DNA of 63,349 bases, counting the filler, from Octopus bimaculoides (lineage: Eukaryota): the NCBI RefSeq assembly GCF_001194135.2. It is 6 parts of 6 records of this genome, joined end to end, with 100 filler letters (N's around TTAATTAATTAA, not from the genome) between each part and the next. Parts side by side here need not be neighbours in the genome. Positions count along the whole stretch, not along the records: positions 1 to 13,392 come from NC_068991.1; positions 13,493 to 23,421 come from NC_068997.1; positions 23,522 to 30,544 come from NC_069002.1; positions 30,645 to 50,315 come from NC_068983.1; positions 50,416 to 61,863 come from NC_068994.1; 1 more part is not named here. One strand, written 5' to 3'. The translations under genes and the position numbers were made by a program. Below, piece by piece: positions 840 to 53,790 of the stretch. Below the pieces are notes generated by a model that saw nothing but the letters and a program-made list of their open reading frames with translations, searched no databases and was not told the DNA's origin. The stretch's first letter is position 1. Every line of letters starts with the position of its first letter.

Positions 840-880
840 GTCTTACAGCTGTTTCAGGGAAAATTCCCTTCATCGGAGAT
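840..880 (-). ncRNA. Minimal type I hammerhead ribozyme-like motif (U4C core variant)
   Basis: Minus strand: AUCU-CCGAUGA-AGGGA(AUUU)UCCCU-GAAA-CAGCUG-UA-AGAC. Helix I UCU/AGA, 5-bp helix II, palindromic helix III CAGCUG. Confidence 0.6.
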
Positions 881-921
881 GGCAATAGTAGAAATTAAGG
901 ATTATTACTTCTACTATTGCC

Positions 922-970
922 GTTTCCGATGAAGGAATACATTGAATTTTCCCTGAAACAGCTGTAAGAC
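922..970 (+). ncRNA. Minimal type I hammerhead ribozyme-like motif (U4C core variant), mirror copy
   Basis: GUUU-CCGAUGA-AGG...CCU-GAAA-CAGCUG-UA-AGAC. Helix II is expanded by an insertion relative to the 840-880 copy. Confidence 0.5.
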
Positions 971-1960
971 ATTCTACATATAATATAAATTTGTTTATGC
1001 CATTGGTCTCTTTATCTCATTCTTTTTATATATGCACACGCTAATACACGACCCATGTTAAATTCCCCACTCATGTTGCAACCGCATCTGGGGCTAAACT
1101 AGTCGGTATACAGCACTTACTCGGTATTACTTGTAACATTCGGATCTGGTTGACTCCATTGCCCAATATAACCAAATATATATATGTATATATATATATA
1201 TATATATATATATATATTGGTGTGTATGTATCTATGCATGCGTGTATGTATGTATGTATGTATGTATGTACGTATGTACGTATGTATGTATGTATGTATG
1301 TATGTATGTATGTATGTAAGCATGTATAGTTGCAGGTAGGGGTGTGCAAGTTCAGTCTCACTGTTTAGCACACTCACACACATGCACACACATACATATA
1401 TACATACATACTCACAAATGTATTTGTGTGTGTGTGTGTGTGTGTGTGTGTGTGTGTGTATGTGTGTGTGTGTGTGTGTGCGTGTGTGTGTAGTCATTTG
1501 TAGGATTTGTTTGAATCAAAGTATTTTAATATTCAGGACACCAATCAGTGAGGATCGAGGTCTGCATATCCATTTGTGAATATACTTCACATACGAACAC
1601 ATTCATATATACCCATGCGTGTACGGATATATCCATGCACTTATACATACATGTACATGAACACACAAGTATACATAAGCATATAAATATACATATACAT
1701 GAATATATATATACCCATCCGCACCGTCATGCAGTTTCACGATCTAATGTAAGTTCCAGATTCATCCTAGGTTCAGCATAAGGATGGTTTCTGTTATGAT
1801 GTTTACGTAAAATAAGAACACAAATGGGTAAATATCCACACTCCACACCTTGGTTAATTTTTTTCTCCGAATCAAATTTTAAATTTCTAATTCACCTGAG
1901 GAGAACGGTTTTCTTATGACGTAATAGAATTATTCTTCAGTAACTGTTTATGGTCTATAG

Positions 1961-2326
1961 CTCTCCGGCAATGTTGATGACGACGTTGTCCTCTTAGAAT
2001 CGTATCCTACATTTTGGGAGTTGAACACAGATTACAATGGTCTTCTTCGGAGAGCTATCAACCGCTGTTTGCATGCACGGTGGACCCAAGAAGATATTCA
2101 GGGACCATCAACTCCTGCAACATTCAACCGGCACAACTTGAAAACTTTTCCCGGAACCGGCAAATCTGCTACTCCCTCTGCGACGAAGGAGCTGCACGCA
2201 TTGAACTAATCCGACGTGAGAAATTTGAGGACAAGACACACCAGATTCACCAACAACATTCTTCAATTAAAAAAACGCGTCTCAAACAGCAGTAGTGAAC
2301 CTTGTCCTGCAATGTCTTCCCCTGAG
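1961..2326 (+). pseudogene. Unassigned exon-like segment with one in-frame stop
   Basis: Acceptor-like tctatag| at 1960 and donor-like GAG|GTGATT at 2326/2327. 122 codons, phase 0-0, open except TAA at 2207-2209. No family recognised. Confidence 0.25.
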
Positions 2327-2418
2327 GTGATTAGGTCACTGTTCTGCCTGTACGCTTGTATGTTTTGCGCGCGCGCCCAAATTTTGCAAACAGCGCACTA
2401 AAGAAATCATTTTGCGCA
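2322..2418 (+). repeat. Left arm of a 97-bp inverted repeat (partner at 9764-9860); DNA-transposon terminal-like
   Basis: 4 mismatches in 97 bp to the reverse complement of 9764-9860; carries repeated GCGCAC/TGCGCA motifs. Confidence 0.9.
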
Positions 2419-2744
2419 TATATATATATGCATGCATATATATATATGCGTGTGTGTGTCTGTATGTGCACATGTATATACATACATACATACATACACA
2501 CACACACTCACACACATTTATATGTATGTGTGTATGTGTGTGTATGTGTGTGTGTGTGTGTGTGTGTGTGTGTGTGTGTGTGTGTGTGTGTGTGTGTGTG
2601 TGTGTGTGTGTGTGTGTGTGTGTGTGTGTGTGTGTGTGTGTGTGAGTTTCATGGTGCATGGTATTTTCTGTCAACTCTTCAAACAAATGAACTCCCATGA
2701 ACTGAATTTGTTATGACAATATTAAAATTTTTTTTCTCGTTTAG

Positions 2745-50415: not shown

Positions 50416-50672
50416 CCCCTGGACTGGTTTGTGCGGGTGGCACATAAAAGACACCATTTCGAGCGTGGCCGTTTTCGTGCGGGTGACACGTAAAAGCACC
50501 CACTACACTCTCTGAGTGGTTGGCGTTAGGAAGGGCATCCAGCTGTAGAAACTCTGCCAAATCAGACTGGAGCCTGGTGTTGCCATCCGGTTTCACCAGT
50601 CCTCAGTCAAATCGTCCAACCCATGCTAGCATGGAAAGCGGACGTTAAACGATGATGATGATGATGATGACA
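50416..50672 (+). mobile_element. Short repeat with RTE-like 3' end and (GAT)n tail
   Basis: ttggcgttaggaagggcatccagctgtagaa...ccaacccatgctagcatggaa...acgttaaacgatgatgat; related decayed copies at 53360-53495 (-), 56235-56425 (-) and 57295-57350 (+). Confidence 0.7.
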
Positions 50673-50689
50673 TACATATATATATTTGT

Positions 50690-50915
50690 GTGTGTGCCTT
50701 TGTGTTTGTATTGTATTTGTACCTCATCACCAGTTGACAACTGGTGTTGGTTTGTTTACATCGATGTAAGTTAGCAGTTTGCCAAAAGATCCCCCTAGAA
50801 TATGTACCAGATTTAAAAACAAATACTTGAGTTGATCTGTTCAACTAAAACCCTTTCAAGGGAGTGCCCCAGCATGGCCACAGTCCAACGACTGAAATGA
50901 AGAAAAGAGTGAAAA
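50690..50915 (+). mobile_element. SINE family C, 3' half, CpG-decayed
   Basis: Aligns to the 48786-48970 reverse complement with CG>TG/CA changes. Confidence 0.7.
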
Positions 50916-51239
50916 ATGAAAAGAATAAAAATTTGAAACGATATTATTTGATGTGGCCTTGTTATTTTCTAAGACAGTTTGGGTGTGGTATGAAGAAGAC
51001 TTGGCTGCTATTTCTAAGAACCCCTTCCATTAGTTCATAGTGTCATTTAAGTATTTGGCATTTAGCCTCTACTGTTTACTAATTAGCTTGTGTGTAACAG
51101 AGTGTCGTAAACCATTCATGTGCGAAGGGTTGGATACAAGACTTTGCAAGGGACTTCAAACATAGCTTTGTGTGTGTGTGTGTGTTGTGTTCTATGGTCA
51201 TATTAACTAAGGTGCCTCCCTTATAGTCATGTCTACTGG

Positions 51240-51900
51240 TGCAGTGTACTAATAAGGATGGCAGTGGTGGTGCTGGTGGGGAAGCGGTCAGTGCGGTGGT
51301 AAAGAAGACAAAGGAGAATGGGGAGGAGGAAAAGGAGGAAGTGGAGGTGGAGCAGCAGCAGCAGAAGCAGAAGAAGAAGAAGAAGAACAACAACAACAAC
51401 AGCAACAAGAACAAGAACAAGAAGGACAAGAAGAAGAAGGAGAAGAAGGAATGATGATGATGATGTGGAGGAGGAGGAGAAGGAGGAAGAGGGAGGAGGG
51501 AGGAGGAGGAGCATGAACGTTATGATGAAGAAATTAAGAAGGAGATGATGATGCTGGTGATGATGATGATGATGATGATGAAGAGGGGGAGGAGAGGAGG
51601 AGGAGGATGGACATTGGGATGAAGAAATTAAGCAGGAAGTGATGATACTGATGACGATGATGATGATGATGATGATGATGATTATAATGATGATGAAGAA
51701 ACTAAGAAGAAGCTGGTGGTTGTGGAAATGGAAGTGATGAAGATGATGATGATGATGATGACGATGACGATGACGATGAATAAGCGAGTTCAAAGGATTC
51801 ACTAAATATTCAGGATGTTTGCTAATAACAATAACAATAATAATAACAACAATAATAATAATAATAATAATAATAATAATAATAATAATAATAACAATTT
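51240..51900. repeat. Mosaic of purine-rich trinucleotide repeats (GAG/AAG/AAC/GAT/TAA)
   Basis: Seen directly; explains the low-complexity ORFs in the track. Confidence 0.95.
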
Positions 51901-53754
51901 CAAGAGTAGTAGTGGTAGTAGTTATTGAGATTCAGGCAATAAAGTCTTGGAGAACCAACATGTCAAGATTGGTAACCATGCATTTCAAAGTGAGTTGATG
52001 GGGGAAGATTTATATGCTAGTGTGTGTGTGTGTGTGTGTGTGTGTGTGTGTCTGTGTATTAGGATGTGTATGCATATTATTTGGTATATATATGTGTGTG
52101 CATGTACATATGTTTGTGTGTATATTAGAGTGCATATATATATATATATATATATATATATGTATACATATATACGTCTGTGCATGTGAGTGATAGCATA
52201 TGTACCTGTGTGTGTGTGTGTGTGTGTGTGTGTGTGTGTGTATATATNNNNNNNNNNNNNNNNNNNNNNNNNNNNNNNNNNNNNNNNNNNNNNNNNNNNN
52301 NNNNNNNNNNNNNNNNNNNNNNNNNNNATATATATATATATATATATATATGTATATAAATATATTTGTCTCTTTGTGTTTGTGAGAGATTTCTATGTGC
52401 ATGTGTTTATAGGCATGCATGTATGCATACTTGGCTAAGTATGTGCGTGTATTGGTATCTATGTGTGAAAGAGAGTGTTAGTACTTCCACTGTATACTTA
52501 TGAACATGCATACAGGCTGTGTATGTGTGTGTGAAATTTTATAGTTGTGATCTTTTAGTGTTTAGTATGTGTAAGACTCTGTGTGTATATATATATATAT
52601 ATGTATCTGTGTTTGCATGTATGTGTTTGTATGTGCATGTATGTATTTGTGTATGTATGTGTTGTATGTATATGTGCATATATGTGTTTGCATGTGTATG
52701 AGAGAGTAATTGAGTGTCTCCATACGGATGTGTTCATGAGATTCTATGTGTGTGATTATGTGCAGCTGTGTATGTGTAAGTGTGCACGGTGGTATTGCTG
52801 TGGTCCTTTAGTGTTTAGTATGCGTTTGTAAGACAGCTATGTATATCTGTATGTGTGCGCATGTATGCATTTGTGAATGCACATTAAATACAATGTCATG
52901 CCCTTCTATCACGCATCCATGACACTAATCCCATCCTCCCCCTCCCCTTCAACTCCTCCTTCTTCAACCTTTTGACCTTTTCCAATTCCTTTTCACTATG
53001 GACTCCAAGTCCCTCTAAACTATTATCCCCCCACGCTGATGGTCACTTGGAGCTAAAATATTTTCTTGACCATCACACCATGTTTTATTCCACCACCACC
53101 ATCACCTCCAACACCACCACCACCTCCACCCCCACCAAACTTATACTATGCGTCCTGCCCCTTACTGAATGCTTCCTTGCCCTCAAGTGCTTCTTCTTTT
53201 CCAGGACATTTTAGCAGCAGACCAATGGGCAGGTCATTGGAGATTCATTTAAGCATTGAATAGAATACATTGTGATATTCGTTCAAGTCTCAATGTTATA
53301 AGTTCAAATCCCACCAAGATCCATTTTGCCTTTTAACTTTTCAAGCTCCTCATCATTGTGATCATCATCATAATCATCATCATCATCGTCGTTTTAACGT
53401 CCATTTTTCCATGCTTGCTATGAGCTGGACAGAGTTTATCGAAGTAGATTTTTAGATTTTCTACAGCTGGACACCTTTCCTGTTGCCAACAATTAACTGT
53501 TTTGAATCAAAATAACATTTCCCCAAGTTGGTCACAGAATATTGGAAATGAATGGCATTCATTTACTACAATCATACACACACTCTCACTCTCTCTCTCT
53601 CTTTCTCACACACACATACAAACTTCTATTGATATATATACATACACCATACATACTTGTATACATATACATACATACATATATATGATAGATCGCTGAC
53701 CACTACATTTATATTTTTTTCTCCTTGTTTCTCTCCTTATTTCTTTCTGTGTTC

Positions 53755-53790
53755 CTTTCAGTTGAAGAGCGTAGGCTCGAAACATCAAAG
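53755..53790 (+). ncRNA. Decayed hammerhead-like motif
   Basis: CUUU-CAGUUGA-A-GAGC(GUAG)GCUC-GAAA-CA-UC-AAAG; helices I and II intact, core positions 4 and 6 altered. Confidence 0.45.

Follow-up and report, generated by a model that had tools for sequence, protein, structure and literature searches.

The stretch of Octopus bimaculoides DNA analysed here (RefSeq assembly GCF_001194135.2; called the window below) is 63,349 nt long including 3,859 N, is AT-rich with abundant microsatellites, and consists of six genomic parts joined end to end. It carries a set of short hammerhead ribozyme motifs, labelled A to E, a broken gene of a Penelope-like element (PLE), and one hammerhead with a rewired order of its parts (Table 1). 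With a probability of about 0.8, the window holds dispersed, likely 5'-truncated tails of several PLE families with hammerheads predicted to cut. Most of these are minimal type I motifs, one with an inherited C at core position 4 (C4, in place of the usual U4), and one is a rewired motif resembling those of Naiad elements.

Seven motif stretches in type I order had been listed in the original prediction, and all seven are present at their places in the window. The strict descriptor (core CUGAnGA/GAAA/UH in the order C-G-S, with helices I and II, and U or C at position 4) is passed by four of them, 876-844(-), 926-966(+), 15370-15405(+), and 43589-43563(-), but not by 23099-23144, 30151-30190, and 53755-53790. 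The seven represent six insertions of about four families. Four do have C4, as had been claimed, but only three independent C4 insertions of two families are behind them, since 840-880 and 922-970 form one foldback. When core and helices are considered together, B1 is complete, A1, A2, and C2 are complete with C4, B2, C1, and D fail, and E has U3. The first reading overlooked the U3 type I motif E at 31271-31229(-), a borderline motif at 48083(-), and the rewired motif at 44160-44036(-). The borderline motif (48045-48087(-)) is a single copy with U4, helix II of 6 bp, helix I of 4 bp with two wobbles, and an imperfect palindrome. With at least 3 bp in helix I and 4 bp in helix II, the window gave two U4 matches (B1 and 48083) and two C4 matches; the corresponding means were 0.013 and 0.0 when the 48,311 unmasked bases were dinucleotide-shuffled 150 times. 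The motifs of type I are real and occur far more often than by chance. Their reading as PLE-type minimal hammerheads with a palindromic helix III is supported; this helix, suited to dimers, is present in A, B1, C1, C2, and E (with wobble pairs in E) and is lost in B2 and D. No hammerhead appeared in Rfam, either in three local scans or in the best 150 of 292 rows for the whole window. Minimal hammerheads have already been published as dense in animal genomes, in thousands of dispersed copies from truncated PLEs, including pairs on opposite strands (PMC4209133), and inverted 5'-truncated PLE copies have been described (PMC8557442). The type I motifs of the window fit this picture and are of a known, ordinary kind.

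Table 1. Features of the PLE-related and hammerhead-bearing parts of the window
Feature	Coordinates	Strand	Basis
Family A foldback: the same element end present twice in inverted orientation, directly after a (TA)n tract; one insertion event	784..1026	.	self-comparison
A1: type I minimal hammerhead, C4, helix II 6 bp, helix I 3 bp, helix III an 8-nt palindrome	844..876	-	descriptor
A2: inverted counterpart of A1, C4, helix II/loop 2 longer by 8 bases	926..966	+	descriptor
Broken 3' part of Penelope-like open reading frame (end of reverse transcriptase region and GIY-YIG-type endonuclease); frameshifts, internal deletion	14630..15184	+	tblastn to P0003
tRNA-like A-box/B-box stretch between the PLE reading frame stop and B1	15230..15293	+	box motifs
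B1: type I minimal hammerhead, U4, helix I 5 bp, helix II 6 bp, 4-nt palindrome	15365..15410	+	descriptor
B2: decayed B1 copy, G12 and C15.2 lost	23099..23144	-	alignment
C1: C4/C7 core, helices II and III, helix I missing	30151..30190	-	sequence reading
E: type I minimal motif, U3 (U3.G8), helix I 5 bp, helix II 3 bp	31229..31271	-	descriptor
C2: complete minimal hammerhead, C4/C7 core, helices I and II 4 bp each	43559..43593	-	descriptor
Short repeat copy with rewired hammerhead, between assembly gap and (TATG)n tract; about 400 nt, no open reading frame	43888..44285	-	contig matching
Rewired motif: helix IV upstream strand (44160-44157) and hairpin V (44156-44118)	44118..44160	-	sequence reading
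Rewired motif: distant 5' strand of helix II, pairs with 44081-44077 (5 Watson-Crick bp)	44113..44117	-	sequence reading
Rewired motif, block S: helix III strand 44097-91 with U16.1 (44092) and C17 (44091); predicted cut 44091/44090; helix I strand 44090-44083	44083..44097	-	sequence reading
Rewired motif, block G: helix II strand, GAAA (44076-44073), helix III strand (6 bp in all)	44068..44081	-	sequence reading
Rewired motif, block C: helix I strand 44054-47 (8 bp), CUGAUGA 44046-44040, helix IV strand 44039-44036	44036..44054	-	sequence reading
D: family C relative (same helix II, helix I 4 bp), core CAGUUGA, non-palindromic helix III, probably decayed	53755..53790	+	alignment

The connection to PLEs is direct for family B. 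The coding remnant upstream of B1 matched protein P0003 in tblastn with E 8e-36 and 3e-19, and C3 of B1 lies 186 nt downstream of the stop of this open reading frame (ORF). B1 and B2 are 89% identical over 140 nt and belong to one family. The stretch between the ORF stop and B1 has a tRNA-like A-box and B-box; ARAGORN and Rfam make no call there. It is followed by (AAT)n and could be an internal promoter or an inserted short interspersed element (SINE). Directly before the PLE fragment, a Pif1 helicase 2B-domain fragment was recognized at 14328-14576(-) (Pfam E 2e-7), probably a Helitron remnant.

C1, C2, and D have helix II in common and little else, and helix I of C1 is reduced to one U.G pair. 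Relatives of this family were found outside the window. In a prokaryote genome collection, one of 78 pattern matches passes the full descriptor; the other 77 fail it and were dropped as chance. The passing match is located in G001, an unrelated 12-Mb bin, and this bin likely contains animal DNA, probably as host contamination, because it has 84 matches to a PLE protein profile. When positions 4, 6, and 7 were left open in the family C pattern, 29 copies of a hammerhead near-identical to that of family C were counted in G001 and none in a reversed control; 26 of them have C4, two U4, and one A4. In eight G001 regions, a distance of 102 nt separates C3 of seven out of 11 such hammerheads from the final codon of a PLE-type frame. 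One hammerhead follows an unbroken frame of 775 codons with reverse transcriptase, a C-x4-C-x2-C linker, and GIY-YIG (Pfam RVT_1, E 1.9e-6, and GIY-YIG, E 2.6e-4, both narrowly missing the Pfam cut-off). Compared by description, this linker fits Neptune/Nematis (PMC8557442). G001 has many hammerhead families, with 227 core-pattern matches against 112 in the control. A second C4 family with an A/U-rich helix I, whose C4 core passes the descriptor, is present there as well (G001:C26:13047-13077 and G001:C277). Viral contigs gave no match for family C and no PLE relative, and metagenome contigs gave one distant PLE without a clear hammerhead.

In an alignment of C1, C2, D, and the G001 relatives (eight hand-picked related rows, so suggestive only), 20 of 44 columns are invariant; comparing the two organisms, both partners differ at three of the four helix I pairs, and one side only in helix II. 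These changes, together with the 26 C4 copies among 29, agree with the earlier suggestion that C4 was inherited in family C. C4 is the letter of the family and is in keeping with an autonomous, probably young element; it does not imply that the elements are non-autonomous. The foldback of family A has two arms that are 87% identical, and its C4 rests on one insertion; no relative of family A was found in G001. The words CCGAUGA, CCGACGA, CCGATGA, and CCGAAGA are absent from supplement file 2 of PMC4209133. The U4C core is not new in itself, as it is known from a viroid, in which it is slower in vitro with infectivity retained (PMC3088659).

The rewired motif has all core bases, and helices I, II, and III of the window copy consist of 8, 5, and 6 pairs. 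Its blocks follow in the order helix II 5' strand, S, G, C, with GAAA upstream of CUGAUGA. The linker from the helix I strand to the helix II strand is a single nucleotide, 44082, variable between A and G. Directly after CUGAUGA only three helix II pairs are possible, versus the five Watson-Crick pairs with 44117-44113, and block C is interrupted. Instead, the bases after A9 pair with 44160-44157 in family-majority letters (helix IV). An earlier guess for the helix IV register, 44130-44124, was ruled out by the table of contig variants. The rewired descriptor has one match in the window and matched one of 150 shuffles in its loose form and none of 150 in its strict form. No rewired motif was identified in 169 G001 loci, in viral contigs, or in metagenome contigs, and GAAAC-before-CUGAnGA patterns in G001 are at or below the control.

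The rewired stretch was found with at least half of its words in 14 of the 24 listed sequencing runs, under six organism labels. No RNA run is among the listed matches, which says nothing on expression. In four runs of four organisms, 6018, 7347, 5358, and 3999 contigs were aligned, numbers that indicate a large family and are not copy numbers. Contig depth over the window copy drops toward its 5' side, and loose contig ends at 44265 reveal family sequence continuing upstream of it. Six positions in 44160-44018 differ between the window copy and the X1 majority. The majority letters at 44157, 44126, and 44036 turn a mismatch into a Watson-Crick pair in helices IV and V, that at 44155 replaces a wobble with C-G, that at 44084 replaces C-G with a wobble, and 44105 is unpaired; no pair is broken. 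In all four runs, helices IV and V are repaired by the majority letters and not broken. Among the variant rows listed, CUGAUGA, GAAA, U16.1, and helix II are untouched. C17 varies to A (43% in X7), and an A occupies free position 7 in one loose end.

The closest counterparts of this wiring are in Naiads, PLEs reported to be without canonical hammerheads, for which 54 consensus sequences are published, some of them labelled 'HHR_core' or 'half_core' (PMC8557442). Naiads have one ORF, with GIY-YIG at the N-terminus, reverse transcriptase at the C-terminus, and a CxC linker. Names were assigned from the next header and the order of metadata. As judged by eye, the 3' ends of ten Naiad consensus sequences in the excerpts of File S5 have the wiring of the window motif in unrelated sequences. 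Amil, Aacu, and Anas (Acropora) are near-identical, with helices I, II, III, and IV of 6, 6, 11, and 8 bp; Obim and Ovul are near-identical, with helices I, II, and III of 6, 6, and 5 bp; Esco has the same wiring with a weak helix II. Four unnamed sequences (near parts 9, 12, 12, and 19) complete the ten, and that near part 19 has helices IV of 5, V of 8, II of 6, III of at least 10, and I of 6 bp. In the clearest of them, helix IV follows directly after A9 and hairpin V is continuous into helix II. Seven nematode Naiads (Nbra-1, -2, -3, Hcon, Hpol, and two near part 13) correspond to hammerhead type CSG and have a further helix that connects the sides of helices I and II. These seven differ fully in helix sequence, and the original CSG paper had two examples. 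In the Naiad file, CTGATGA occurs at 19 places, ten of which are such motifs and nine coding or ambiguous; the other seven motifs were reached through other words.

By analogy of wiring, the rewired family is likely of Naiad origin. It is somewhat more probable than not that Naiads carry non-circularly permuted hammerheads, of type CSG in nematodes and, in corals, cephalopods, other Naiads, and the window family, of an undescribed five-helix form whose catalytic core is open between A9 and G10.1. If so, no ribozymes of this sort had been assigned to animal genomes before, and they would be active as monomers and present in thousands of copies. In the mostly open-access literature searched, nothing linking Naiads to permuted hammerheads was found, and Lunse et al. 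2017 and Weinberg et al. 2015 may describe the U4C or the rewired form. A word search in the available text of PMC10162972 did not find a passage on a hammerhead with an extra helix.

These features suggest the following course. Type I motifs with palindromic helix III sit 3' of the coding region for reverse transcriptase and GIY-YIG, as was observed for B1 and for the family C relatives, and according to the published papers they would be low-activity cutters, working as dimers or with the element protein. Reverse transcription would start near the 3' end and usually stop early, leaving tails of 150-400 nt and sometimes foldbacks. C4 would be the letter of the source element, as seen in the family C relatives and presumably also in family A, and the rare U4 copies would arise via CpG decay. 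In the rewired motif, helix IV and hairpin V may fill the backbone gap between A9 and G10.1, which would give a pseudoknotted junction of five helices. Given its intramolecular helix III of 6 bp, this motif is expected to cut as a monomer once its last block is transcribed. More speculatively, the products might stay joined by helices II, III, and IV, favouring re-ligation or circle formation.

Several points weigh against this interpretation. Self-cleavage of both the rewired and the type I motifs is predicted from sequence. The rewired descriptor was written after the motif had been seen, and the helix IV register was chosen after the contig variant table had been seen. Pseudoknot-free folding, a method that can neither show nor test a pseudoknot, predicts other folds for the rewired motif with z near 0. 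Minor variants weaken or break helix III in X7 (44095, 12%, and 44093, 23%), and a CpG variant at 44072, at about 15% in three runs, weakens it. Conservation within the family is weak evidence of selection because copies of one family inherit their letters. The Naiads were parsed by eye on FASTA excerpts of File S5 around search words, a part of the 54 sequences. The curated set contains neither of two words taken from the rewired copy, and a third, shorter word matched an unrelated Naiad once. Families A, C, D, and E and the rewired copy have no adjoining ORF in the window, and none of the domains recognized by Pfam in 234 stop-free pieces adjoins A, C2, D, E, or the rewired motif.

The rewired motif could be a conserved structural signal, such as a protein-binding site or a start site of reverse transcription, that derives from a hammerhead and no longer cuts, with the C4 motifs as equally inactive passengers. 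The hammerhead of an anole PLE required protein to cut, insertion in vitro took place without this hammerhead, and no reads ended at its site (PMC11167929). The lowered in vitro activity with U4C points the same way, and the detachment of helix II from A9 runs against an assumption of Eckert et al. (PMC10085705). The dominant predicted fold of C1 and C2 (87-92% of the ensemble) is a rod that pairs the core with the cleavage triplet; C7 is modelled as its main cause, and the monomers are predicted to be inactive. Against such a loss of function, the window copy and the Naiads read, from distant phyla with wholly different helix sequences, kept the catalytic bases, U16.1-A15.1, and a non-G at 17. 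Moreover, the nematode Naiads match type CSG, both tested members of which cut (PMC10085705). We regard an inactive signal as rather unlikely.

The original prediction had taken the motifs as marks of non-autonomous, retrozyme-like elements, and a spread of such retrozyme- or SINE-like elements as short or circular RNAs would suit the copies of 150-400 nt without ORF, which are the majority. The tRNA-like stretch before B1 and the great abundance of the rewired family, for which no ORF was seen, also accord with it. Retrozymes themselves are proposed to derive from PLE terminal repeats (bioRxiv 10.64898/2026.07.22.740005). However, among 150 of 153 tandem-repeat rows for the window no array covers any motif, and in self-comparison the motif copies are dispersed or inverted only. 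B1 comes after a broken PLE gene, the family C relatives come after PLE ORFs, one of them unbroken, and the fall in depth over the rewired copy, with family sequence beyond its start, is as expected for truncation. We regard a non-autonomous origin as improbable. A chance arrangement of the rewired motif in one decayed repeat copy is hardly credible: the descriptor was post hoc, the window copy is single, Rfam gave no match, and the folding z was near 0, but strict shuffles gave 0/150, family-majority letters repair helices IV and V in all four runs, and the same block order and junction spacing recur in unrelated Naiad sequences.

The remaining repeats in the window are of other kinds. Broken fragments resembling long interspersed elements (LINEs), several as inverted pairs, were located at 13563-14029, 15622-17582, 30646-30936, and 20666-23042. 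Of these, the LINE-like RVT_1 piece at 30646-30936 is separated from C1 by some 460 nt that include a gap. Foldbacks without a hammerhead core are at 8414-8917, 30353-30461, and 53925-54046, the last 135 nt from D. A dispersed repeat of about 385 nt, likely a SINE, has four copies that are 82-94% alike, one of them partial (3132-3516, 28488-28689, 37752-38134, and 46774-47161). Pfam recognized three matches in total (the Pif1 2B domain, RVT_1 below the cut-off, and a weak ribonucleotide-reductase), ARAGORN predicted no tRNA genes, and one translated window piece was 73% identical to an Octopus sinensis protein.

As U4C is fixed in a PLE family with an unbroken gene, descriptors with a fixed CUGAnGA miss whole families, and family C is a natural test of the minimum activity that a PLE hammerhead needs. 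The rewired motif is of greater importance: it would close the gap that made Naiads an argument for dispensable PLE ribozymes, would put non-circular hammerheads in known animal genomes, and would break the three-block rule with its topology. It fits on one transcript of 130 nt and so can be tested.

Compared with the minimal type I hammerheads of PLEs (Cervera and de la Pena 2014, PMC4209133), the window motifs have the same C-G-S order, short helix I, extra base after A9, and palindromic helix III, and they likewise occur as dispersed single copies and head-to-head pairs near PLE ORF ends. Families A and C differ by C4, the only core variant found in the published excerpt being U3-A8. The viroid variant (cited in Perreault et al. 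2011, PMC3088659) has the same U4C change and is infective though much slower in vitro, but here the change is the majority letter of a retroelement family common to two animals, and the motif is minimal and shows no obvious loop-loop contacts. Non-LTR (long terminal repeat) retrozymes (bioRxiv 10.64898/2026.07.22.740005) are also non-coding, with type I hammerheads related to PLE terminal repeats, but are defined by tandem hammerhead units and also characterized by abundant circular RNA; none of the window motifs is tandem.

Types SGC and CSG (Eckert et al. 2023, PMC10085705) have a non-circular order and a very short linker between helices I and II, as in the rewired motif, and S-G-C is no circular permutation of types I-III. 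According to the available text, they were found in metatranscriptomes and metagenomes, with a known-organism genome only for one bacterial GCS candidate. The nematode Naiad motifs resemble type CSG even in the helix joining the sides of I and II. The window motif differs from type SGC in that helix IV and hairpin V separate its helix II 5' strand from CUGAnGA, and the opening of the chain falls within helix IV. In predicted function it resembles type SGC, from which it departs in one defining feature, and it counts as a variant. With Naiads (Craig et al. 2021, PMC8557442) it has in common the (TA)n-rich surroundings and the 3'-end wiring of the six named and four unnamed sequences, and it differs by the missing match to curated words and the missing ORF in the window copy. 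A pseudoknot hammerhead (Zhan et al. 2024, PMC11300833) is similar in that it is active, has helix II rebuilt from a distant strand, and has an additional helix IV. Its helix II is completed by the loop of a stem-loop that helix I carries, in a pistol-like manner, while in the window motif the partner is a free strand after hairpin V and the cleavage block is looped inside helix II.

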